A model generated the notes under the pieces. That model was not told the DNA's origin, ran no database searches, and saw only the letters and a list, made by a program, of their open reading frames with translations. The position numbers were made by a program, and so were the translations under genes. 64,000 nt of DNA, from positions 24,601-88,600 of the forward strand of contig CAYVZB010000001.1 of the NCBI GenBank assembly GCA_964456405.1, read 5' to 3'. Positions 4,121-60,531 of the stretch are shown here, piece after piece. The DNA comes from an uncultured Candidatus Saccharibacteria bacterium (GTDB taxonomy: Bacteria > Patescibacteriota > Minisyncoccia > Phycocordibacterales > DATGWK01). Each line of letters starts with the position of its first letter. Positions within the stretch are counted from its first letter, which is position 1.

Positions 4121-4195
4121 CTCTTGCAGGGCAGTGAGTCAGAATGATATGTTTGTAGTGCTTTCTTTAAAAACTAATTAAATTTTCAAAAAACC

Positions 4196-6097
4196 ATGGC
4201 AAAAATAATTGGAATTGATCTTGGAACAACGTTTTCAGCTGTTGCTGTCATGGAGGCAGGTGGCCCGAAGATTCTTGAGAATTCTGAAGGTGCACGAACG
4301 ACTCCATCTATCGTTGCAACATCAAAAAATGGTGAACGACTTGTTGGTTTGCTTGCAAAACGACAGGCAGTAACAAATCCTAAGGGCACAATCGTTGGTA
4401 TCAAACGATTTATTGGTCATACATACGAAGACCCCGCTGTTCAAAAAGATAAGGCAAACGTTCCATACGAAATCGCAAAAGGAGCTGACGGTGGCGTACT
4501 GGTAAAAATGTCTGGAAAGGATTACCGACCAGAAGAAATTTCTGCGATGATCTTGCAAAAGCTTAAGGCTGATGCAGAAGCTAAGCTCGGAGAAAAAGTA
4601 ACGGAGGCAATCATTACGGTGCCTGCGTACTTTAACGATGCCCAGCGAAAAGCAACAAAAGATGCCGGTCAGATTGCTGGCCTTGATGTAAAACGAATCA
4701 TCAATGAACCAACAGCTGCTGCACTTGCGTATGGTTTTAATAAAAAGAAAGATGAAAAAATCGCTGTCTTCGACTTCGGTGGAGGCACATTCGATATTTC
4801 TATTCTCGAAGTCGGTGATGATGTCGTAGAAGTGAAGTCTACAGATGGCGACAGTCATTTGGGTGGTCGTGACATTGATCAGAAGATCATTAACTGGCTT
4901 GCTGATGAATTCAAGAAGGATCAGGGTATTGATCTTCGGGGCGATGCATTTGCTCTTCAGCGACTTGATGAGGCTGCAGAAAAGGCAAAAATTGAGCTTT
5001 CAACTGCTACAGAAACCGAAATCAACATTCCGTTCATTACTTCAGACGCAAGTGGCCCTAAGCATCTTGTGATTCGAATGAGTCGTGCAAAACTCGAAGA
5101 GTTGGCTCGAGAATTTATTGATCGAGCAATCATGATTACAAAGCGAGCCATGGAAGCATCACCATTTAAGGTTGGTGATTTGAACGAAGTGGTACTTGTT
5201 GGAGGTCAAACTCGAATGCCACTGATTGCTGAAGAAGTGAAGAAATTCTTTGGCAAAGAACCAAACAAATCTATCAATCCTGACGAAGTTGTGGCACTCG
5301 GCGCTGCGATCCAGGGTGGAATTATTACTGGTGATGTAAAAGATATTCTTTTGCTCGACGTTATTCCGCTTTCACTTGGTATCGAAACCATGGGTGGTGT
5401 GTCTACAAAGCTGATCGAAAAGAACACAACCGTTCCTGCTTCTAAGTCGCAAACATTTTCAACTGCGGCAGATAACCAGACTTCGGTAGAAATTCACGTG
5501 CTCCAAGGCGAACGACCAATGGCGACTGATAACAAAAGCCTCGGACGATTTATTCTCGATGGAATTCCTCCAGCTCCACGTGGCATGCCACAAGTTGAAG
5601 TTACTTTCGACATTGATGCAAACGGAATCTTGAGCGTAAAGGCAAAAGACAAGGCTTCAGGTCGCGAACAATCTATTCGAATCGAAGCAAGTTCAGGTCT
5701 TTCCAAAGAAGAAATTGCAAAAATGCAAAAAGATGCAGAAGCTCATGCTGCCGAAGATGCAAAGAAGAAAGATTTGGTTGAAGCAAAGAATATTGCTGAA
5801 CAAATGATCTACACATCAGAAAAGTCTCTCGCTGATGCTGGTAGCAAAGTTCCAGAAGACGTGAAAAAGGCAGTTACAGAGAAAGTTGACGCCCTCAAAA
5901 AAGCAAAAGATGGTTCAGACATCGATGCTATCAAAAAGGCAACATCTGAGCTCTCTACTGAAATACAAAAAATTGGTCAGCATATGAACCAACAGGCGGG
6001 TGGCCAAACTCCTCCGGGCCCAGAGGCAAACAAGGACAATGTTCGAGATGCAGAATACAAAGAAAGTCCGAACGAAGGCGAGCAGCCAAAACAATAA
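4196..6097 (+). CDS. dnaK: molecular chaperone DnaK (Hsp70)
   Basis: 633 aa. [18 protein letters not shown]..., the DLGGGTFD motif as [14 protein letters not shown], and a C-terminal substrate-binding domain and lid. Confidence 0.97.
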
Positions 6098-6104
6098 TTA
6101 ATTA

Positions 6105-7160
6105 ATGGCGAAAGACTATTACAAAATTCTTGGTGTAGAAAAGAGTGCTTCAAAAGACGATATCAAAAAAGCGTTTCGAACACTTGCGCACAAGTATCAT
6201 CCGGACAAAAAGGGTGGCGATGAGGCGAAGTTCAAGGAAGTGAATGAAGCATACTCGGTACTGAATGACGAGAAAAAGCGCGCTGAGTATGATGCGTATG
6301 GTCAAACCTTTGCTGGTGGCGCCGGTCCAGGTGGTTTTGATTTCTCTGGATTCCAAGGACAAGGTGGAGAAGGATTTGGCTTTGATTTTGGTGAAATTTT
6401 CTCTGACTTCTTTGGCGGAGGTGGTGGTGGACGAGTAAAGCGTGGCCGAGACATTTCTATTGATGTCGAACTTAGCTTCGAGGAAGCGGTTTTCGGTGTA
6501 TCACGAAAGATTCTCCTCAATAAAACTTCTACTTGCAAAACATGTAACGGAAACGGTGGGGAACCGAACACTAAGTTTTCAACTTGTACGGTGTGTAACG
6601 GAAAAGGAAAGATTCGCGAGGTTCGTGGCACAATTCTTGGTTCATTTGCAACAGAACGACCGTGTGCAAACTGTCACGCGACAGGCAAGGTACCTGAAAA
6701 GAAATGTCACACCTGTCATGGTGCGGGCGTAAGCCGACAAGAAAGCGAAATCAACGTAAAGATTCCTGCTGGAATCGAAAACGGAGAAATGATCCGACTT
6801 ACCGGCGCAGGCGAAGGTCTTGCTGGTGGCTCTAGTGGTGATCTCTATATCAAGGTTCATGTTCGAAAACATGCACTCTATACCAAAGATGGTAAGAACC
6901 TTTTGACTGATCTCAAAATTAAGCTTTCTGATGCGCTTTTGGGTGGGGAATATGTACTCAAAACTCTTGATGGTAATGTAACTCTCAAAATTCCTGCTGG
7001 AATTACATTTGGCGAAACTTTACGCGTAAAAGGCAAAGGTGTGCCAGATGACCGAAGTAAACGCGGCGATATTCTCGTTCGGGTTGTAATCGAGCTTCCA
7101 AAATCTCTTTCACGAGATGCGAAAAAGGCTATAGAGCAACTAAAGAAAGAGGGGATTTAA
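6105..7160 (+). CDS. dnaJ: molecular chaperone DnaJ (J-domain, G/F-rich linker, 4x CxxCxGxG zinc finger)
   Basis: 351 aa. DYYKILGV...HPDK J-domain, a Gly/Phe-rich region, and [24 protein letters not shown] and CHTCHGAG repeats. Confidence 0.95.
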
Positions 7161-8234: not shown

Positions 8235-8431
8235 ATTCTGTTAGAGACTCAATCAAAATATTGTGAAGCTGTTTAATTAAGTGTAATTTTTTTGTTCCTC
8301 ATTACAATTTGGCTCTTTAGATTTGAGAGTAATTCTCTTTTGCCCATAATTCCAGAGTGGAATCTTTTGAGTCGCTCAATCTCAACTTCAGGTTTCTTCA
8401 TCTTAAGCCACATTTTTGCTACTATATACCC

Positions 8432-8521
8432 ATGGCAGACAGAAAAATCATGGTCTCTGGCGTGAAGCCAACTGGCCGACTCCATATTGGTAACTACTTC
8501 GGTGCAACAGGACTTTTGTAA
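8432..8521 (+). pseudogene. duplicated 5' fragment of trpS (29-codon ORF MADRKIMVSGVKPTGRLHIGNYFGATGLL*)
   Basis: Segment 8436-8508 is about 95% identical to 9421-9491, the start of the intact trpS. The copy has its own ATG, encodes TrpS residues ~1-25, then diverges to a stop. Confidence 0.8.
8436..8508 (+). repeat. direct repeat copy A (trpS 5' core, ~70 bp); partner at 9421-9491
   Basis: aaaatcatggtctctggcgtgaagccAactggccgactccatattggtaactacttCggTgca versus aaaatcatggtctctggcgtgaagccGactggccgactccatattggtaactacttTggAgca. Confidence 0.85.
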
Positions 8522-9353: not shown

Positions 9354-9392
9354 AACCCGATCCGCCATTCCCGGCGGGTCGTTTCGTTTTAA
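9354..9392 (+). terminator. candidate rho-independent terminator
   Basis: ccgcc-attcc-cggcgg stem-loop followed by gtttcgtttt. Confidence 0.4.
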
Positions 9393-9417
9393 GCCGCATT
9401 CTTGTTATTATTCTTGT

Positions 9418-10401
9418 ATGACAAACCGCAAAATCATGGTCTCTGGCGTGAAGCCGACTGGCCGACTCCATATTGGTAACTACTTTGGAGCAATCAGACA
9501 GTTTGTTGAGTTAAGCAACACACACGAATCATACGTGTTTCTTGCAGATCTTCATGCGCTCAACTCTGTTCAGAACAGAGCAGAAATGGCTGAGAACGTG
9601 CTCAATGCGGCAATTGATTATGTTGCACTTGGCCTCGACCCGCGAAAGGTAACAATTTTCCTCCAGTCACAAGTCAGCGCTCATGCTGAACTCGCATGGA
9701 TCTTCAACACACTTACTACCATGCCGTACCTAATGCGAGCACATGCGTTCAAAGACGCTGAGGCAAAGAACAAAGAAATCAGCGTTGGTGTGTTTGATTA
9801 TCCACTCCTTATGGCAGCAGATATTTTGTTGTATTCACCAGACGTCGTGCCCGTTGGAAATGATCAGAAGCAACACGTAGAAATCGCTCGCGATACAGCC
9901 GAGAAATTCAATAGAACTTTTAATGCAGAAGTATTTAGGCTTCCTCAGCCAGTAATCATCGCCGATGTTGGAACTGTTCCAGGTACTGACGGCCGCAAGA
10001 TGAGCAAGAGTTATGGAAACACTATTGGTATTTTTGCCGAAGATGGTGAAATTCGAGCTGCTGTTATGAAGATTCCTACAGATTCTAAGGGTGTAAACGA
10101 TCCGAAAGATCCAGAAACTGATAATGTCTTTGCTCTCCATAAACTTTTCGCTACTCCAGAAGAACTTGCAGATCTGCGAAACAAATACACAAATGGTGGA
10201 ATTGGATATAAGGACTCAAAAGAACTTTTGGCTTCACGAATTTCTCGATTCGTTACTCCATTTCGTGAAAAACGAAAACTGATTGCTCGAAGGCCACGAA
10301 AGATTGTAAAAATGCTGATTAAAGGTTCAAAGCGAGCAAATAAAATCAGTCAAATGAAAATGGACGAGGTTCGCAAGGCTGTTGGAATCGCTCTCAAATA
10401 A
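9418..10401 (+). CDS. trpS: tryptophan--tRNA ligase
   Basis: 327 aa. The class I HIGH motif appears as TGRLHIGNYFG, the KMSKS motif is present, and the length is typical of bacterial TrpRS. Confidence 0.95.
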   Translation: MTNRKIMVSGVKPTGRLHIGNYFGAIRQFVELSNTHESYVFLADLHALNSVQNRAEMAENVLNAAIDYVALGLDPRKVTIFLQSQVSAHAELAWIFNTLTTMPYLMRAHAFKDAEAKNKEISVGVFDYPLLMAADILLYSPDVVPVGNDQKQHVEIARDTAEKFNRTFNAEVFRLPQPVIIADVGTVPGTDGRKMSKSYGNTIGIFAEDGEIRAAVMKIPTDSKGVNDPKDPETDNVFALHKLFATPEELADLRNKYTNGGIGYKDSKELLASRISRFVTPFREKRKLIARRPRKIVKMLIKGSKRANKISQMKMDEVRKAVGIALK

Positions 10402-28383: not shown

Positions 28384-28411
28384 ACCTGTATCTTAGCAAA
28401 AATAAGGGGTT

Positions 28412-28485: not shown

Positions 28486-28938
28486 CTACCTGGTCTCCGA
28501 CTCCTCGGTCGTATCCGGAAGGTACTTAAACCTCCAGATCGTGACGACGGTATCCCAAGGCGGCAATTCATCCTTGCCAACCGGACTGAGCGCAGCGAGG
28601 TAAAACCTCACGAGCTCCGGGGTCGCACAGTCGGGAGCGCAGCCGGCAAGATCATCCGGCGTGAGCTCCTCGATCTTCTTGGCGAAGCACTCCGTCCGTT
28701 CGAAGGTCAGACCCTCGTCGGGAACGAGGTTACCCGGCACTCCAACCTTCGGCTCGCCAAACCCCTCGATGAATCGGATCGCGAGGGGTTCGTTGGGCGG
28801 GATGTAGTTCACATGCCCTGGATCCGTGCGGTCGCCCTTGCGAACCACCGCCGTGATCTTCCTGCTGCGAAATCCTTCCATCGTCGACTTCCTGTTCCAG
28901 AAGCCACGATCTCCGTAAAGTCGACATCGATCAAGCAT
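28486..28938 (-). CDS. hypothetical protein encoded in a ~0.55 kb GC-rich insert (150 aa from the ATG at 28938; GTG alternative at 29004)
   Basis: Minus-strand ORF with a balanced, acidic composition. GGAGGG sits 4-5 nt upstream of the ATG at 28938. Local GC is far above the flanking genes. The overlapping + strand ORF is Arg-rich nonsense. Confidence 0.55.
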   Translation of the reverse strand: MLDRCRLYGDRGFWNRKSTMEGFRSRKITAVVRKGDRTDPGHVNYIPPNEPLAIRFIEGFGEPKVGVPGNLVPDEGLTFERTECFAKKIEELTPDDLAGCAPDCATPELVRFYLAALSPVGKDELPPWDTVVTIWRFKYLPDTTEESETR

Positions 28939-29035
28939 GATACCCTCCGCTATGAGAAAAAAACCTCCTAGACACAGCGAATTGCTGGTCTTTCTAGACG
29001 ACACTATAACAGATTAAACAATACTAGTCAATTAG

Positions 29036-50782: not shown

Positions 50783-50845
50783 TTAGAACATTGTCTCAAA
50801 GTTAACAAGTTCAAGCAACTCGGTGAGGTAGAAAGAATGCAATTC

Positions 50846-51001
50846 GATACAAATGTATTCGTATCCCCTTCCCAAACCACCACTTCGAGAGAGTGAGGAG
50901 CGGGACGAGCCGGTGCGTCAATGCCCGAGCGACGACTAGTAAAATCCTCCGCTGGGAGGATTTTACGCTCTCGAGAAGTGGTGGTTAAAAAATTGCTATA
51001 A
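50846..51001 (+). repeat. structured intergenic repeat, copy 1 (MITE-like, ends in an extended -10 TGcTATAAT six nt before the cysS ATG)
   Basis: Near-identical to 56192-56376. Terminal inverted repeats ccaccacttcgagagag / ctctcgagaagtggtgg, and an internal perfect hairpin gtaaaatcctcc-gctg-ggaggattttac. A palindrome lies at the 5' edge. Confidence 0.8.
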
Positions 51002-51008
51002 TAATTTC

Positions 51009-52424
51009 ATGAAACTCCATAACACCTTATCTGGAAAGACGGAAGACTTTAAACCAGAATCCGGAAATACTGTACGAATGTATAATTGCGGTCCAACTGT
51101 TTATAATTATGCCCACATTGGAAACCTTAGAAGTTATGTTTTTGCAGACACACTAAAACGCACACTGCTCTTTTCTGGTTATTCCGTTAAACAAATAATT
51201 AACATAACAGACGTTGGCCACCTTACTGGAGACAGCGATACTGGTTTAGACAAAGTTGAAGAAGGAGCAAAAAAAGAAAAGAAAACTGTTTCAGAAATTA
51301 TTAATTTCTACACTGACGCCTTTATCGACGATCTTAAAAAATTAAATATAAATACATCCGGCACACTCTTCCCAAGAGCGACCGAACACATTGCAGAGCA
51401 GATAGATTTAATTAAAAAACTCCAAAATAAAGGATATACGTATAAAACATCTGATGGTATCTATTTCGATACAAGTAAATTTAAAGAATATGGCAAGTTA
51501 GGAAACATTAAGCTTGCAAATCTCGAGGAGGGTGCTCGAATTGGTATCAATCCAGAGAAGAAAAACCCAACCGATTTTGCGCTTTGGAAGTTTTCCCCAA
51601 TGACTGAAAAACGTGAACAAGAATGGCCATCACCGTGGGGAGTCGGTTTTCCCGGTTGGCATATTGAATGTTCGGCAATGGCTATGAAATATTTGGGTGA
51701 AACATTAGACATTCACACGGGTGGAATTGACCATATCCCCGTCCATCACAACAATGAAATTGCTCAGTCTGAAGCCGTAACCGGAAAACCATTTTCTCGG
51801 TTTTGGCTACACAACGCTTTCATAACGGTTGATTCGGGTAAAATGGCAAAATCTGCTGGGAATTTCACTCGTCTTGCCACCCTTGAAGAACAACATATTC
51901 ACCCGCTTGCGTATCGATACTGGCTTTTGACTGCTCACTACCGTTCTCCTGTTATGTTTAGTTTTGAAGCAGTTAAAGACCAACAAAGCGGACTTAATTC
52001 ATTACTCCACAGTATTGCTTTTGCAAAAGAGCGAGAAACAATCTTTAGCAGAATCCTTAAAAATCCAATTGGGGTTAAGAAAAAATTGATTGAAATTTTA
52101 GAAAATGATCTCGATACGCCGAGGGCAATTGCTTACCTACATAAAACCGTTACAAGCATTATTATTGACCAAAAAGCGATCACAAAAACACTAAATTATT
52201 TCGATCAAGCACTAGGGCTAAGATTAAATTATCTCGCTAATTATATTATTGACTTACCAGACGACATCAAAAAAATCGCTAGTCAACGTGACAGATACAG
52301 AAAAGAACAAAATTGGACAAAATCAGACGAATTAAGAAATGAGCTTGTGAATAAAGGGTATTACGTTAAGGACATTGTGGGTGGCAGTCGAGTTTATAAA
52401 ATAATAGGTAACACCTATCCATAG
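51009..52424 (+). CDS. cysS: cysteine--tRNA ligase
   Basis: 471 aa. MYNCGPTVYNYAHIGNLRSY (HIGH), KMAKSAGN (KMSKS) and Zn-binding Cys/His positions. Confidence 0.93.
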   Translation: MKLHNTLSGKTEDFKPESGNTVRMYNCGPTVYNYAHIGNLRSYVFADTLKRTLLFSGYSVKQIINITDVGHLTGDSDTGLDKVEEGAKKEKKTVSEIINFYTDAFIDDLKKLNINTSGTLFPRATEHIAEQIDLIKKLQNKGYTYKTSDGIYFDTSKFKEYGKLGNIKLANLEEGARIGINPEKKNPTDFALWKFSPMTEKREQEWPSPWGVGFPGWHIECSAMAMKYLGETLDIHTGGIDHIPVHHNNEIAQSEAVTGKPFSRFWLHNAFITVDSGKMAKSAGNFTRLATLEEQHIHPLAYRYWLLTAHYRSPVMFSFEAVKDQQSGLNSLLHSIAFAKERETIFSRILKNPIGVKKKLIEILENDLDTPRAIAYLHKTVTSIIIDQKAITKTLNYFDQALGLRLNYLANYIIDLPDDIKKIASQRDRYRKEQNWTKSDELRNELVNKGYYVKDIVGGSRVYKIIGNTYP

Positions 52425-54908: not shown

Positions 54909-54978
54909 AGGGCCTTATTCTACATAAACAGCCAGAAAATGCAATAAGTAGGCTCTATGAGGCCATTTTTAGCCTATT

Positions 54979-56043: not shown

Positions 56044-56191
56044 ATTAGAGAATTATACCATTCCCCGTAGGAGTGGGTTTCAACCAGCCCTTCAGGAGGG
56101 CGCCGTCGATTTCTACTGAAATCGCGGCTCCTCTCGGCTCGTCAGCCTGCGAGACCCTCCATTCAGGGCTGGTTGGGAGAAAGGAAATACA

Positions 56192-56376
56192 ATACAAATG
56201 CATTTGTATTCCCTTCCCAAACCACCACTTCGAGAGAGTGAGGAGCGGGACGAGCCGGTGCGTCAATGCCCGAGCGAAGCGAGTGGCTTGACGCGAGTCC
56301 GAGCGACGACTAGTAAAATCCTCCGCTGGGAGGATTTTACGCTCTCGAGAAGTGGTGGTTAAAAAATTGCTATAAT
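56192..56376 (+). repeat. structured intergenic repeat, copy 2 (same element as 50846-51001, with a 29 bp internal expansion; ends TGcTATAAT six nt before the ATG)
   Basis: Shares the palindromic 5' edge atacaaatgcatttgtat, the terminal inverted repeats, the internal hairpin and the 3' ttgctataat. Carries an extra agcgagtggcttgacgcgagtccgagcga. Confidence 0.8.
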
Positions 56377-56382
56377 ATCCCC

Positions 56383-56835
56383 ATGACAATCCCAGAAAAA
56401 ATCAAAGCCGACATGGTTCAAGCTATGCGTGACAAAAACACAATAAAAGTAACCGCACTACGCGGACTCATTGCAAACTTCGCAACTGAACACATGACAA
56501 AGAAGAAAAAGGTTGATGAAACGCTTTCGGATGATGAAGCGACAACTGTAATCATGAGAGCAATCAAACAAAGAAAAGATTCGATTGACCAATTTACAAA
56601 AGGCGGACGAATGGATTTAGTTGCGAGTGAAGAAAATGAACTAAAAATAATCGAAACCTATGCTCCCAAACTCATGTCTCGCAATGATATTCTTTCTCTA
56701 GCAAAAATGAAAAAAGAAGAAATGGGCATTACTGACAAAGCCAAAATGGGCCAACTTATGAGCACTCTGATGAAAGACCTCAAGGGCAAAGCGGATGGGG
56801 CTGATGTTAAATCAGTCGTAGAGTCTCTTTTTTAG
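56383..56835 (+). CDS. GatB/YqeY domain-containing protein
   Basis: 150 aa. The pattern ...AMRDKNTIKVTALRGLIANF...LMKDLKGKADG matches the YqeY/GatB C-terminal domain family. Confidence 0.8.
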   Translation: MTIPEKIKADMVQAMRDKNTIKVTALRGLIANFATEHMTKKKKVDETLSDDEATTVIMRAIKQRKDSIDQFTKGGRMDLVASEENELKIIETYAPKLMSRNDILSLAKMKKEEMGITDKAKMGQLMSTLMKDLKGKADGADVKSVVESLF

Positions 56836-57361: not shown

Positions 57362-57433
57362 GGCCCTATCGTCTAACGGTTAGGACAGTGCCTTCTCAAG
57401 GCATAAATCGGGGTTCGATTCCCCGTAGGGTCA
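57362..57433 (+). tRNA. tRNA-Glu (anticodon CUC)
   Basis: 72 nt cloverleaf folded by hand. Acceptor ggcccta/tagggtc, D-arm gtct/ggac, anticodon stem gtgcc/ggcat with loop ttCTCaa, T-arm cgggg-ttcgatt-ccccg, discriminator A. No encoded CCA. Confidence 0.8.
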
Positions 57434-57468
57434 CAACTAAGGCCGATGCGGAGGCCTAGAAATAAACC

Positions 57469-57705
57469 GTGAGGACACAAAAAGCAAAATTTAAAGAAGG
57501 TGAGATTATTAAAAATCTTCATAATAATTTTCAGCGAATTATTCGCCGGATTGCTTATGTGGAAAAGAATGGAATGCTTGAAGTGCGCTACTTCTACTCT
57601 GGTGAAAAGCTAGATGATTCTTTGAAACCAACTGGTCGTTTTAGTGATGAGATAGCTGGCAATTGTAGCCAGACCACCATGCTGAATTGGCAGAAAAAAC
57701 AATAA
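57469..57705 (+). CDS. hypothetical small protein (78 aa)
   Basis: AT-rich ORF between the tRNA and the recombinase. No motif recognised. Confidence 0.3.
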   Translation: MRTQKAKFKEGEIIKNLHNNFQRIIRRIAYVEKNGMLEVRYFYSGEKLDDSLKPTGRFSDEIAGNCSQTTMLNWQKKQ

Positions 57706-57707
57706 TT

Positions 57708-59027
57708 CTATTCCAAACCTAACTTTTTGTCCCTTAATAGTATTCTGCTCTTGATACAACTTAGTATTTCTCGTTTTTGAAGCATCGTACCATGTCGTAG
57801 CATATGTTTGGCAAATGTTTTTATGGAGATATCTTTGTGTTTTTTTGACTGATTTAAATCAATCCCAAGCACCCCGCTCTGAAATAAAGCATACCTCGCT
57901 ACTTCCTCTTCCAGTTTCTTTTTCAGCTCGCTCTTGTCCATGCTCATCTTGTCGATGATCAGCATAACTTCGTCTATGAGTATCGATTCCTTGACCGATT
58001 CGTTCTGGCATTCTCGGTTCTTCACTTTCGTACATCGGTAGTAGACGTGGGTGTTCGAGCCCCCATCTTTCAGCTCTTTTATCTTTTCTTCCGCCGTTAT
58101 GCCCGACTCGCAGTAGGCGCAGTGAAGCATTCTCGTGAATGCGAACTCTCTACCGTACGCCTTCTTTTTCTCGACTTTTATTTTTTCCTGTACTGCTTCA
58201 AATAATTCTCTCGATATGATCGGCGTGTGTTTGCCTGTGTACCATTCGCCGCTATCCTCAGGGTATTCGAACACTCCGTAATAGAAGGTCATTCTAAGTA
58301 TTCGATATATGTTGCCAAGTGTGACATATTTCCCATTCTTATTCTTGAAATCGATTTCCTTGAGCCATTTGTATATTTTTCGGCCAGAATAATTTTCGTT
58401 TGCCACTTTCTCAAACATTTCCTTGATGATTGGTGCTCTCTTTGAATCCACGATCACTTGGCATTTTTCATCCTTATTCTTGCTATTAAGGTAGCCAGTC
58501 GGTGCCATCGACGGCCGAAGTCCCATGGCCGCCCTCGTTCGCAATCCTCGCTTTACGTTGATCACCTTGTTGTCGTTTTCAAGCTTTGCCTGTGATCCGA
58601 GAATCATCAGCATGAACTTGTCGTTCGGCGTGTTCGTAAATTTCTGCCCGTAGGTTCGTATCTCGATGAGTTTTTTCTGGTCCATCAAGTCCACAACTCT
58701 GCCGAGGTCGCCTGCGTTTCGGGCGATTCGGTCTGGTGCCCATGTAAGAATGCCATTGTATTTTCCTTGCTTGAGTTCCTCCACGATCTCGTTGAAGACT
58801 GGCCGCTGTCCGGCTTCCTTCGCTGAGTGAGATTCTTTCTTCGTGACCACGATTTCTAATCCATCAGCAACTGCCATTTTCTCCATTTCTTTAATTTGAG
58901 AGTCGATAGATAGAACTTGCTTATCCTCTTGTTCCGTACTTTTTCTGGCGTAAAGGCAGTACGAAAGCCTTACGGGGCTTGCTGGTTTGGCCGTAGCCCC
59001 AGACGGCGCTGTGGTTGCATATGTCAT
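57708..59027 (-). CDS. large serine recombinase (resolvase N-domain, recombinase domain and zinc ribbon); the track start at 59084 is less likely
   Basis: LYARKSTEQ catalytic-Ser motif, DRIARN, a recombinase-domain block and a C-terminal CAYCESG...YYRCTK zinc ribbon. About 440 aa. Confidence 0.8.
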   Translation of the reverse strand: MTYATTAPSGATAKPASPVRLSYCLYARKSTEQEDKQVLSIDSQIKEMEKMAVADGLEIVVTKKESHSAKEAGQRPVFNEIVEELKQGKYNGILTWAPDRIARNAGDLGRVVDLMDQKKLIEIRTYGQKFTNTPNDKFMLMILGSQAKLENDNKVINVKRGLRTRAAMGLRPSMAPTGYLNSKNKDEKCQVIVDSKRAPIIKEMFEKVANENYSGRKIYKWLKEIDFKNKNGKYVTLGNIYRILRMTFYYGVFEYPEDSGEWYTGKHTPIISRELFEAVQEKIKVEKKKAYGREFAFTRMLHCAYCESGITAEEKIKELKDGGSNTHVYYRCTKVKNRECQNESVKESILIDEVMLIIDKMSMDKSELKKKLEEEVARYALFQSGVLGIDLNQSKKHKDISIKTFAKHMLRHGTMLQKREILSCIKSRILLRDKKLGLE

Positions 59028-59135
59028 ACATACACATTGATGACACAACCCCTCCGGGGAGTCCAGGCTCCCCAGAGTTAGCAACTATTTCTCCAAATAT
59101 TCAAATATACTTACGATCCGTATAGAATCGCCCGA

Positions 59136-60397
59136 GGTGCAAACGGTTTTGGGTGGCCACTTAACCACATAAAACAATGAATAAAATGTTAACTTATAGT
59201 CAGTACCTTAAACGAACAAAAGAATTGAAGACTCCGGAGGATGTTGCTGCATTCGCGCAGGAGTTAATCGCTCCTTTTGTTGGAAATGTAGTCAAAGAAG
59301 AGCCTGTTTCTGTGAGCGAAGAAGCCGCCGGTAGCTTGGCGGCTTCTATTGAGGAAACTCCCGCACCTGTAAAACAGAAATATAATCGCAGGAATCCGTA
59401 CGCGATCGAGCAGGTCAATCCGTGGCACGATGTCGCAAGTAACGAGACTGAGCTCATGGTAATTGATCTCTATGCAAAAGGTCTCACCACTCGAGACATT
59501 GTGAATCACTTAAAACGCAGTCATGGCATCGAACTATCACAACCAACAATCTCAAACATCACCGATAAGGTATTTCCTTTGGTGAAAGAATGGCAGTCGC
59601 GAGCGCTCTCGTCATGCTACCCAATATTGTACCTCGATGGCATGCACTTTAAGGTACGCGAGGCAGGCAAGATTGCTTCCAAGGTGGCATATATTGCTCT
59701 GGGCATAAATCAGTTTGGGCAAAAGGAAGTTCTCGGTATGTGGATTAGCGAGACTGAGGGCGCAAAATTCTGGATGCACGTCTTGAATGACCTCAAGAAT
59801 CGCGGTGTGGATGATATTCTCATTGCCTGCGTTGATGGTCTCAAAGGATTCCCGGAAGCAATCAAAGCAATGTATCCACACACAGACGTTCAAGTATGTA
59901 TCGTTCACCAGATCAGGCATACGGTCATGTTTATCGCAACAAAGGATAAGGACCAATTCTGCATTGAACTTAAATCTGTTTACAACGCTCCAAGTGAACA
60001 AGCGGGACTCGATGCACTTAAAGACATGATGGAACGATGGCCGCAGTATCGGGCATATCTCAAAAGTTGGGAGACGCGATGGTCTGATATCGCTCCGTTC
60101 TTCAGCTATCCGCAGTCAGTTCGTAAGACGGTCTACACCACAAATGCGATTGAAAACTTAAATCGCCAATTCAGAAAGGTAACAAAGACAACCCAAATCT
60201 TTCCTCATGATGACGCACTACTGAAATTGCTCTGGCTCGCCCAAGCTGATCTCACACAGAAATGGGTTCTCGGGACACGTAATTGGTCGGAAGTTATGGC
60301 ACAACTTAGCATCATGTTCCCAGACCGCGTTCACTTCTAGTCACTAAACAAATCAGAAAAATTAATTAACGTGGCGCATTCAAAAACGTTTAGCACC
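59136..60397 (+). mobile_element. IS256-family insertion sequence (~1.26 kb)
   Basis: Imperfect terminal inverted repeats GGTGCAAACGGTTTTGGGTGGCCAC (59136-59160) and the reverse complement of 60371-60397 (GGTGCTAAACGTTTTTGAATGCGCCAC), flanking one transposase gene. No clear target-site duplication. Confidence 0.6.
59177..60340 (+). CDS. IS256-family (Mutator-type) transposase
   Basis: 387 aa. YLDGMHFKVR, IACVDGLKGFPEAI and CIVHQIRH blocks are typical of the IS256 DDE transposase. Confidence 0.85.
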   Translation: MNKMLTYSQYLKRTKELKTPEDVAAFAQELIAPFVGNVVKEEPVSVSEEAAGSLAASIEETPAPVKQKYNRRNPYAIEQVNPWHDVASNETELMVIDLYAKGLTTRDIVNHLKRSHGIELSQPTISNITDKVFPLVKEWQSRALSSCYPILYLDGMHFKVREAGKIASKVAYIALGINQFGQKEVLGMWISETEGAKFWMHVLNDLKNRGVDDILIACVDGLKGFPEAIKAMYPHTDVQVCIVHQIRHTVMFIATKDKDQFCIELKSVYNAPSEQAGLDALKDMMERWPQYRAYLKSWETRWSDIAPFFSYPQSVRKTVYTTNAIENLNRQFRKVTKTTQIFPHDDALLKLLWLAQADLTQKWVLGTRNWSEVMAQLSIMFPDRVHF

Positions 60398-60531
60398 TGG
60401 CAAAAAATCGTGGCCTAGAGCTGCGGTTTTTTGTTTTAATATAAAAATCGGGATAATTGACATGTGTATTTTTTTACTATATGGTATTGACCAGACAGTT
60501 ATTTCATAACACAATTCACAAGGAGTCAGAA

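Follow-up and report, generated by a model that had tools for sequence, protein, structure and literature searches.

A structured repeat upstream of cysS and yqeY belongs to a large family of palindromic elements in Patescibacteria

Among the described systems closest to the repeat studied here, the Rickettsia palindromic elements (RPEs) sit in-frame inside unrelated housekeeping genes, where they are translated, and also occur between genes (PMC10969869). Correia elements carry promoters and invert (PMC10969869), and the CGTC-tagged REPs have a conserved CGTC tetranucleotide (PMC3733652). In the literature searched, whose coverage was incomplete, no description of such elements in CPR/Patescibacteria was found, and the family of palindromic selfish repeats presented below is apparently undescribed in this phylum. 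Because CPR/Patescibacteria genomes are tiny and gene-dense, a selfish repeat family with units of 100 bp is also unexpected there.

The DNA analysed is a stretch of 64,000 nt (hereafter the window), whose host was placed in Patescibacteria (Paceibacteria/Parcubacteria-like MAGs) by its CysS and YqeY homologues, the nearest CysS being 72–75% identical. The original prediction was of a sequence of ~155 bp that recurs almost identically, and this was borne out: two copies, and only two, are present in the window, at 50846–51002 and 56191–56376, and probes of 56 and 46 nt match at 50877/56222 and 50939/56313, respectively, with 0 mismatches (0 matches expected in shuffles). A repeat finder returned blocks of 97 and 94 nt with 93–94% identity, flanks counted in. 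The sequence had been correctly located, with ends that needed small corrections: copy 1 extends to 51002, since TATAAT occupies 50997–51002 and an end at 51001 clips its last T, and copy 2 starts at 56191. Both copies do lie in divergent intergenic regions, the first between the genes for an S41 protease and cysS, and the second between rmuC and yqeY.

In the alignment, copy 1 equals copy 2 from CCCTTCCCAAA through TTGCTATAATA, bar one indel of 29 nt. The core is 100% identical between the copies, and the palindrome that flanks it differs at 5 of 20 positions, being GATACAAATGTATTCGTATC (20 nt, 50846–50865) in copy 1 and the perfect 20-nt palindrome AATACAAATGCATTTGTATT (56191–56210) in copy 2. 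The additional 29 nt, found by alignment and sequence in copy 2 only (56278–56306), are bounded by the 8-nt direct repeat CCGAGCGA (56270–56277 and 56299–56306), so that copy 1 appears to descend, by a slippage deletion, from a copy-2-like sequence. Copy 2 is the probable source copy.

We refer to the core as the type A element. Delimited by its sequence, its folds and the covariance model R1 described below, it spans 112 nt in copy 1 (50875–50986) and 141 nt in copy 2 (56220–56360), on the minus strand in both cases, and it is made up of a closing stem P1, P2 and a hairpin P3 (50939–50966 in copy 1). The predicted terminal inverted repeats are real. In copy 1, 50875–50886 pairs with 50975–50986 over 12 bp (AACCACCACTTC/GAAGTGGTGGTT), and inward of this 12-bp P1 both copies have a 2×2 internal loop and then 6 further bp, which gives a closing stem of 12 + 6 bp. 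The internal perfect hairpin of 12 bp, GTAAAATCCTCC-GCTG-GGAGGATTTTAC, was likewise found where it had been reported, at 50939–50966 and 56313–56340. Relative to copy 2, which retains a P4-like hairpin GCGTCAA.GCC...GGCTTGACGC, the P4 region of copy 1 is shortened by the 29-nt deletion. Folding compared with shuffles gave z = −5.3 for copy 1 and −6.7 for copy 2 on the plus strand, with about the same values on the minus strand. Both copies have one of the features of a MITE, namely terminal inverted repeats around a short non-coding segment.

A second element lies at 56080–56175 on the plus strand, directly upstream of rmuC and in the orientation opposite to type A copy 2, and the rmuC–yqeY spacer of the window accordingly holds two opposed elements around the perfect 20-nt palindrome. 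This second, GC-rich element (type B) resembles elements in L006 and L005 (L numbers denote the loci compared), and a short-word BLAST gave more relatives in remoter Paceibacteria. Nine elements other than type A were aligned, and RNAalifold folded them into two stems, the outer one closing the element, and a three-way junction that bears two hairpins, with compensatory changes in 30 of the 32 pairs. The covariance model R1, built from these nine aligned elements and comprising 97 modelled positions, had 26 matches in 1.44 Mb of cysS-anchored loci from GTDB genomes, and at least 95 plus at least 51 more in at least 120 loci from one pattern scan of JGI metagenomes, for a total of at least 172 elements in ~2.4 Mb of Patescibacteria DNA. 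Within the GTDB set, 90.6% of cells were paired, against 40–50% with the partners slid, and double changes were seen in 32 of 32 pairs, statistics that are inflated towards structure, as the alignment was fitted to R1.

The members of this family are palindromic repeats of ~95–140 bp, with a long closing stem of variable sequence (up to ~30 bp), a second stem, and a three-way junction that carries an A/T-rich hairpin (typically AAATTTC-UGCU-GAAATTT) and a G/C hairpin (typically GCGC-CGTC-GCGC). The junction bases CACG and CUC and the loops UGCU and CGUC are conserved across the family. Many members (L138, L149, L020 and L012/L155 among them) have an extra outer helix past a conserved asymmetric internal loop (5' CTTTCTC / 3' TTCAACG), and therefore the full element is nearer to 125–140 bp than to the 97 positions modelled.

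Type B is a canonical member of the family, with 84.3 bits under R1, a fold z of −5.9 and homologues in L006, L087 and L005/L092. On the minus strand, type A matched R1 with 27.4 bits in copy 1 (E 3e-6, 64 kb, filters off) and 24.9 bits in copy 2, which is absent from the seed, and both copies were also matched in a 67-kb search (E ~1e-5 to 1e-6 over 64–67 kb); these scores are modest, given that a lone long hairpin can reach ~17 bits with R1. The match spans P1, P2 and P3, and the rearranged P4 region gives no match. The flanks agree with this assignment: the canonical element upstream of rmuC in L003 is followed by ..AGGTGCTGTTTATAGAAGGGATACAAAT, type A copy 2 (minus strand) is followed by ..AGTGGTGGTTTGGGAAGGGAATACAAAT, and the copy 2 flank GGAAGGGAATACAAAT matches the flank of the L003 element at the same place upstream of rmuC, from which it follows that type A is a derived form on an old site. 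The type A core is, then, a lineage-specific and partly degenerate member of a large family of palindromic repeats in Patescibacteria (Paceibacteria-like CPR bacteria). A conserved secondary structure, which had been envisaged for the copies, was confirmed insofar as a family model with strong covariation matches both, and the reading of the repeat as a miniature element holds for the core, which is small, non-coding and bounded by inverted repeats, is of the MITE/palindromic-element kind, and belongs to a multi-copy family whose occupancy varies among relatives.

Type A itself was found only twice in the 2.46 Mb examined, both times in the source genome, and its own mobility therefore rests on one event. 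A two-arm pattern scan of genome contigs for type A gave 0 matches, and viral contigs gave 0 matches for either type A or the family hairpin, with no phage link found. The source genome has a fourth family member, with the tail described below, 3.4 kb before the start of the window, in L220, which overlaps the window at 100% over 7.2 kb.

Gene order around the two copies is conserved in L003/L004, L005, L006, L087 and L216, where the S41 protease gene (minus strand) is followed by cysS, dnaB and recR (all plus), L21 and rmuC (both minus) and yqeY (plus). The spacer between the protease gene and cysS measures 226 bp in the window, ~90 bp in L003 and L005, where there is no element, and 182 bp in L006 and L087, where a different GC-rich stem-closed element and the same palindrome are followed directly by ATGTTATTATTATTTCATG. 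The spacer between rmuC and yqeY measures 340 bp in the window (canonical element plus type A) and ~170 bp in the L005/L092 genome (canonical element only), and it has no element in L087 (96 bp, YqeY 92% identical), L214 (47 bp) and L216 (61 bp).

Some further features of these loci were recorded. In L091, the rmuC–yqeY spacer contains another stem-closed element of ~190 bp (4190–4375), which ends GACCAAACCCC...GGGGTTTGGTC and has no R1 match, and a reverse-transcriptase gene (RVT_1, 964–2298) is inserted between recR and L21. A small GC hairpin beside an A/T run, AAAACCCGCC(C)NGAGGGCA, terminator-like on the opposite strand, recurs near family elements and promoters in several relatives (L087 9960–9985; L091 4365–4385; L005 12995–13060 and 15705–15730; L220 ~6620–6640).

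The palindrome at the 5' side had been taken for an edge of the repeat. It is instead the tail of the adjacent canonical unit, and is found at cysS in relatives without type A. The tail GGGA(A/G)AAG(A)AAT..AATAC(A/G)AATGCATTTGTATT follows canonical elements in the window (56176–56210, after the element at 56080–56175), at the cysS locus of L006/L087 and in L220. In the protease–cysS spacer of the window, GATACAAATGTATTCGTATC plus CCCTTCCCA (50846–50874) lies outside type A, the palindrome belonging, as its 3' tail, to a canonical unit that has no core at this site, and in the rmuC–yqeY spacer AATACAAATGCATTTGTATT plus CCCTTCCCA (56191–56219) lies between the canonical element and type A copy 2.

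The same comparison bears on the promoter. The TATAAT stands exactly 6 nt before the ATG in both copies, as predicted (cysS ATG at 51009, yqeY ATG at 56383). At yqeY, the plus-strand segment 56361–56382 comprises an A-tract, TTGC-TATAAT (TATAAT at 56371–56376) and 6 nt, and it is also present in the element-free relative L087, which reads GAAAAAAATTGCTATAATAACCCCATG before yqeY; AAAAAATTGCTATAATA is thus the resident yqeY promoter. At cysS, the plus-strand segment 50987–51008, with the A-tract, the extended −10 (TTGC-TATAAT, 50993–51002) and the 6 nt up to the ATG, is a copy from the yqeY locus; the ancestral cysS sequence reads TGTTATTAT-TATTTC-ATG in L006 and L087 and TGTTATTAT-GGTGCA-ATG in L005. 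The direction of copying, from yqeY to cysS, follows because the yqeY of L087 has AAAAAATTGCTATAATA without an element and the cysS of L006/L087 has the palindrome and then ATGTTATTATTATTTCATG; the complete identity of the core, set against five differences in the 20-nt palindrome, is further evidence. Of the idea that the element donates a promoter, one part therefore stands, as the cysS −10 arrived together with the element, but the promoter is no part of the element, as L087 demonstrates.

We propose that the copy between rmuC and yqeY is old and that the one at cysS is recent. The segment from CCCTTCCCAAA through the element to the yqeY A-tract and extended −10, up to TATAATA, was copied into the protease–cysS spacer, probably by way of sequences already alike at both loci (to the left the tail of a canonical unit, to the right the −10 region). 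In the process the cysS TGtTATTAT was replaced by a copy of the yqeY TGcTATAAT, and copy 1 would afterwards have lost 29 nt by slippage between the CCGAGCGA repeats. Because the ends of the segment coincide with pre-existing similarity at both loci, we infer ectopic recombination or gene conversion rather than transposition, and not a cut-and-paste event with target duplication.

The results on target sites and insertion sequences also weigh against a classical MITE, mobilised in trans by an IS transposase and with an intrinsic outward promoter as in Correia elements. Such an origin would account for the inverted-repeat ends, the small size, the lack of coding capacity and the place right before two genes, with a perfect extended −10 to the 3' side, and the promoters and inversions of Correia elements (PMC10969869) offer a precedent. 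It does not account for the −10 and A-tract at yqeY in a relative without the element, or for a copied segment that, in the alignment of the copies, reaches past the inverted repeats on both sides. The target-site duplication and the partner IS that such an element might have were not found: set against the empty site of L006/L087, the filled site of the window has ATGTTATTATT replaced and nothing duplicated, the 21 family members that were inspected showed no direct repeats at their flanks, and the only IS in the window, of the IS256/Mutator family (59177–60340, ~3 kb from the repeat), has unrelated ends (GGTGCAAACGGTTTT..). Closing stems, moreover, differ between copies of one genome, so that not all of them can be the binding site of one transposase. 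A classical MITE is consequently an improbable origin.

Leaderless mRNAs had been predicted downstream of both copies, and the comparison backs this for both genes, whose orthologues share the −10 spacing, with the reservation already made that the promoter is not borne by the element. The predicted leaderless genes are cysS (cysteine–tRNA ligase, PF01406, 51009–52424) and yqeY (GatB/YqeY-domain protein, PF09424, 56383–56835), both on the plus strand and identified by Pfam and by comparison with orthologues. They fit what is expected of a leaderless-mRNA promoter, a TGnTATAAT-like motif 6–8 nt upstream of the ATG, conserved in orthologues, and no Shine–Dalgarno sequence. More broadly, the orthologues of four genes (yqeY, cysS, rmuC and the one for the protease) have TGnTAnnnT 6–10 nt upstream of the ATG; in the window, extended −10 motifs precede start codons at 50783–50800, 56044–56066, 195–214, 9400–9417, 28384–28400 and 54909–54925, and only 5 of the 30 genes that follow spacers have an SD-like motif, several having the extended −10 arrangement. 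Judging from these motifs, most mRNAs of the source genome and its lineage seem to be leaderless or nearly so. A consensus scan found no −35/−10 pair on the plus strand, which fits extended −10 promoters, and no terminators. Transcription of cysS and yqeY would then proceed from extended −10 promoters without a −35, starting at or next to the ATG. A terminator role of the element was considered and rejected, as no terminator-like sites were found and intrinsic terminators of the canonical form serve elsewhere, one of them between L27 and L9.

Taken together, the explanation that we regard as likely is that the repeat is a member of a selfish family whose cysS copy was recently copied from the yqeY locus along with its promoter, with leaderless starts from the extended −10. 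An essential aminoacyl-tRNA synthetase gene is now placed behind a promoter copied from another gene, which would amount to regulatory rewiring by recombination of dispersed repeats.

Some copies of the family lie inside conserved, even essential, protein-coding genes. Eight of the 172 listed elements (hence at least eight in the family) are in long ORFs that extend for 90 nt or more to either side, and all are in-frame: L104 2974–3068, L154 2053–2148, L141 5409–5503, L147 12469–12563, L111 738–834, L095 3869–3964, L188 3302–3396 and L180 841–935. The translated hosts include two UvrD/PcrA, a cysteine desulfurase, a phosphoglucosamine-mutase-like protein, TsaD and Dus, in which the element encodes an insert of ~32 residues (for example ..LGSATARARGIFQQKNIRA..). 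When TsaD was aligned with the E. coli TsaD structure 4wq5, residues 1–201 and 233–362 of the query corresponded to 1–188 and 190–315, and the insert is therefore of 31 residues; the cysteine desulfurase showed the same pattern against a solved structure. In-frame insertion with the host frame kept, as in RPEs, is thus a property of the family, the two copies of the window being intergenic. Stop codons are depleted, with at least one open frame in 89% of elements compared with 73% of shuffles, and minus frames open in 34–45% of elements compared with 15%. Intron-like splitting of genes was rejected, since the ORF pairs that tightly flank five elements are different, complete genes, and the preservation of the reading frame by in-gene copies also speaks against it. 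The family thereby adds unexplained insertions to protein alignments and creates spurious ORFs. An ORF of 114 codons on the minus strand of the window (56045–56389) spans both elements of the rmuC–yqeY spacer; it is most likely a by-product of the depletion of stop codons in the family, and no gene.

The distribution of the copies is that of a dispersed repeat. Multi-copy dispersal and presence/absence polymorphism are both evident at the family level (at least 172 matches, with empty orthologous sites); copies cluster, with up to five per locus, and some lineages have several per 10–20 kb. Among the 172 listed elements, 37 are between convergent genes and 17 between divergent genes, and those between co-directional genes are sense in 35 cases and antisense in 39. 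The same element of 119 nt is found inverted between L27 and L9 in L012 (7165–7282) and L015 (7169–7287), 88% identical, and the genes around it align directly at 75–79%, below the 88% of the element. Two copies in L005 have the closing stem and both flanks in common, and their inner hairpins differ by compensatory changes. We call the family mobile because of this distribution, with no mobilising enzyme, target-site duplication or defined ends identified. Several contigs end inside family elements (the ends of L003 and L005 and the starts of L092, L093 and L186), which suggests that the repeats interrupt metagenome assembly.

An alternative is a functional structured RNA transcribed from one strand, whether from a small RNA gene or as a leader or insulator acting in cis, which would explain the strong covariation and the loop and junction bases kept among distant Patescibacteria. 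Type A, for instance, could be read on the minus strand from TATTAT, with the A/T palindrome as a weak terminator, and some details are suggestive: the identity between the copies stops exactly at TATAATA (TATTAT on the minus strand), a T-rich stretch follows the palindrome on that strand, and a promoter-like minus-strand site is present inside the element. The helices of the 172 listed elements, however, comprise 4262 Watson–Crick cells, 169 G-U and 194 A-C, and so carry no strand signal, and neither an excess of G-U over A-C nor a consistent orientation was found among these elements, the orientation relative to genes being random (35:39). Furthermore, TsaD, cysteine desulfurase and UvrD contain in-frame, translated copies, occupancy differs between close relatives, and no terminator-like site was found. 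Rfam 15, searched with gathering and permissive thresholds, passed only a tRNA-Glu in the window, the best sub-threshold matches over the elements being at chance level (E 0.8–8), and these scans ruled out T-box, riboswitches, known ribozymes, 6S, Y RNA and families like them. Readings as an integron attC site, a hammerhead or a tRNA-like structure were dropped because R''/R' boxes, CUGANGA...GAAA and a 7-nt anticodon loop are unconserved across members. We consider a functional RNA quite unlikely for these reasons, and the same observations (no Rfam match, no strand signal, random orientation) make the cis-regulatory RNA that had been suggested for the two copies unlikely as well. The family acts as selfish DNA of the MITE/Rickettsia-palindromic-element kind, and not as a strand-specific RNA.

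That both copies in the window precede tRNA-related genes had been noted as a possible link. It is coincidental, since family members also flank recR, dnaB, L27/L9, ftsA, tyrS and many further genes, and the element is not a tRNA-related riboswitch or leader.

A DNA-level role that is beneficial to the host was also weighed, in which a domesticated element would be kept at promoters as a cruciform-prone insulator, a supercoiling sensor or a binding site for a host protein. Selection that is symmetric on both strands would suit it, as would the place of the element, which occupies the −35 position in promoters without a −35, the two opposed elements that flank the divergent rmuC/yqeY promoters, and the 88% conservation of the L012/L015 element compared with 75–79% for the flanking genes. 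Nevertheless, close relatives lack the element at the same promoters, many copies could play no part in a promoter, being inside genes or between convergent ones, and copy 1 has already lost part of its structure, all of which leaves domestication unlikely. Under the selfish reading, the junction and loops are still strongly conserved across a class-level clade, which is unusual for simple junk DNA and hints at a function of some kind. As a tentative suggestion, the core might be the recognition structure of dedicated machinery, whether a host protein or a mobilisation enzyme that is RNA-guided or acts on single-strand DNA; the element would then spread by means of its hairpins to spacers and to the surface loops of essential proteins, and would rewire leaderless promoters by recombination between copies, as at cysS.

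Other features of the window were observed alongside the repeat. The region 57362–60420 contains a tRNA-Glu (CTC), then a large serine recombinase (57708–59084, minus strand) and then the IS256/Mutator-family transposase (59177–60340), whose inverted repeats read GGTGC(A/T)AAACG..; from this region to the end of the window GC rises to 0.45–0.50, and L087 has a different serine recombinase at the same place. It is probably an integrated element at the tRNA. A GC-rich region at 28.5 kb was examined as a further copy of the repeat and rejected, as it is a GC-rich coding region; this region (28486–28939, minus strand) has a GC of 0.60–0.67 in a genome of ~0.40 and may have been acquired horizontally. 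A second repeat pair, at 8397–8507 and 9383–9493 (111 nt, 83% identity, 986 bp apart), is unrelated to the type A repeat.

Compared with the known systems, the family shares least with T-box and other aminoacyl-tRNA-synthetase leaders, the likeness being limited to a structured element upstream of cysS; there is no Rfam leader match, the same family flanks many unrelated genes, and the element, with the −10 on its downstream side, would stay outside the mRNA. REPs and BIMEs with their RAYT transposases resemble the family in being intergenic palindromes in which the hairpin, rather than a transposase gene, is the conserved feature. REPs, however, are single hairpins of 20–40 bp with a tag (GTAG or CGTC) at the 5' foot of the stem, whereas the elements described here are branched and of 95–140 bp, and their CGTC is in the loop of the P4 hairpin. 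Correia repeat-enclosed elements, which are Neisseria MITEs, are similarly small, have inverted repeats that form long RNA/DNA stems, occur just upstream of genes in association with promoters, and invert (PMC10969869); they differ in their conserved 26-bp ends, TA target duplication and intrinsic promoters, since here the ends vary, there is no duplication and the promoter is that of the host gene. RPEs are alike in size (~100–150 bp), in being multi-copy without coding of their own, in their reduced host genomes and in a mobilisation mechanism that is not known (PMC10969869). In contrast to RPEs, the present family keeps its three-way-junction core, with covariation, throughout a class-level clade and leaves the closing stem free to vary, and the two copies of the window are intergenic, not intragenic; as the host phylum is unrelated to Rickettsia, the likeness is an analogy of behaviour and not membership. 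The parallel with the unexplained RPEs nonetheless offers a second system, and a far wider one, for studying how such repeats move and why they are tolerated in proteins.
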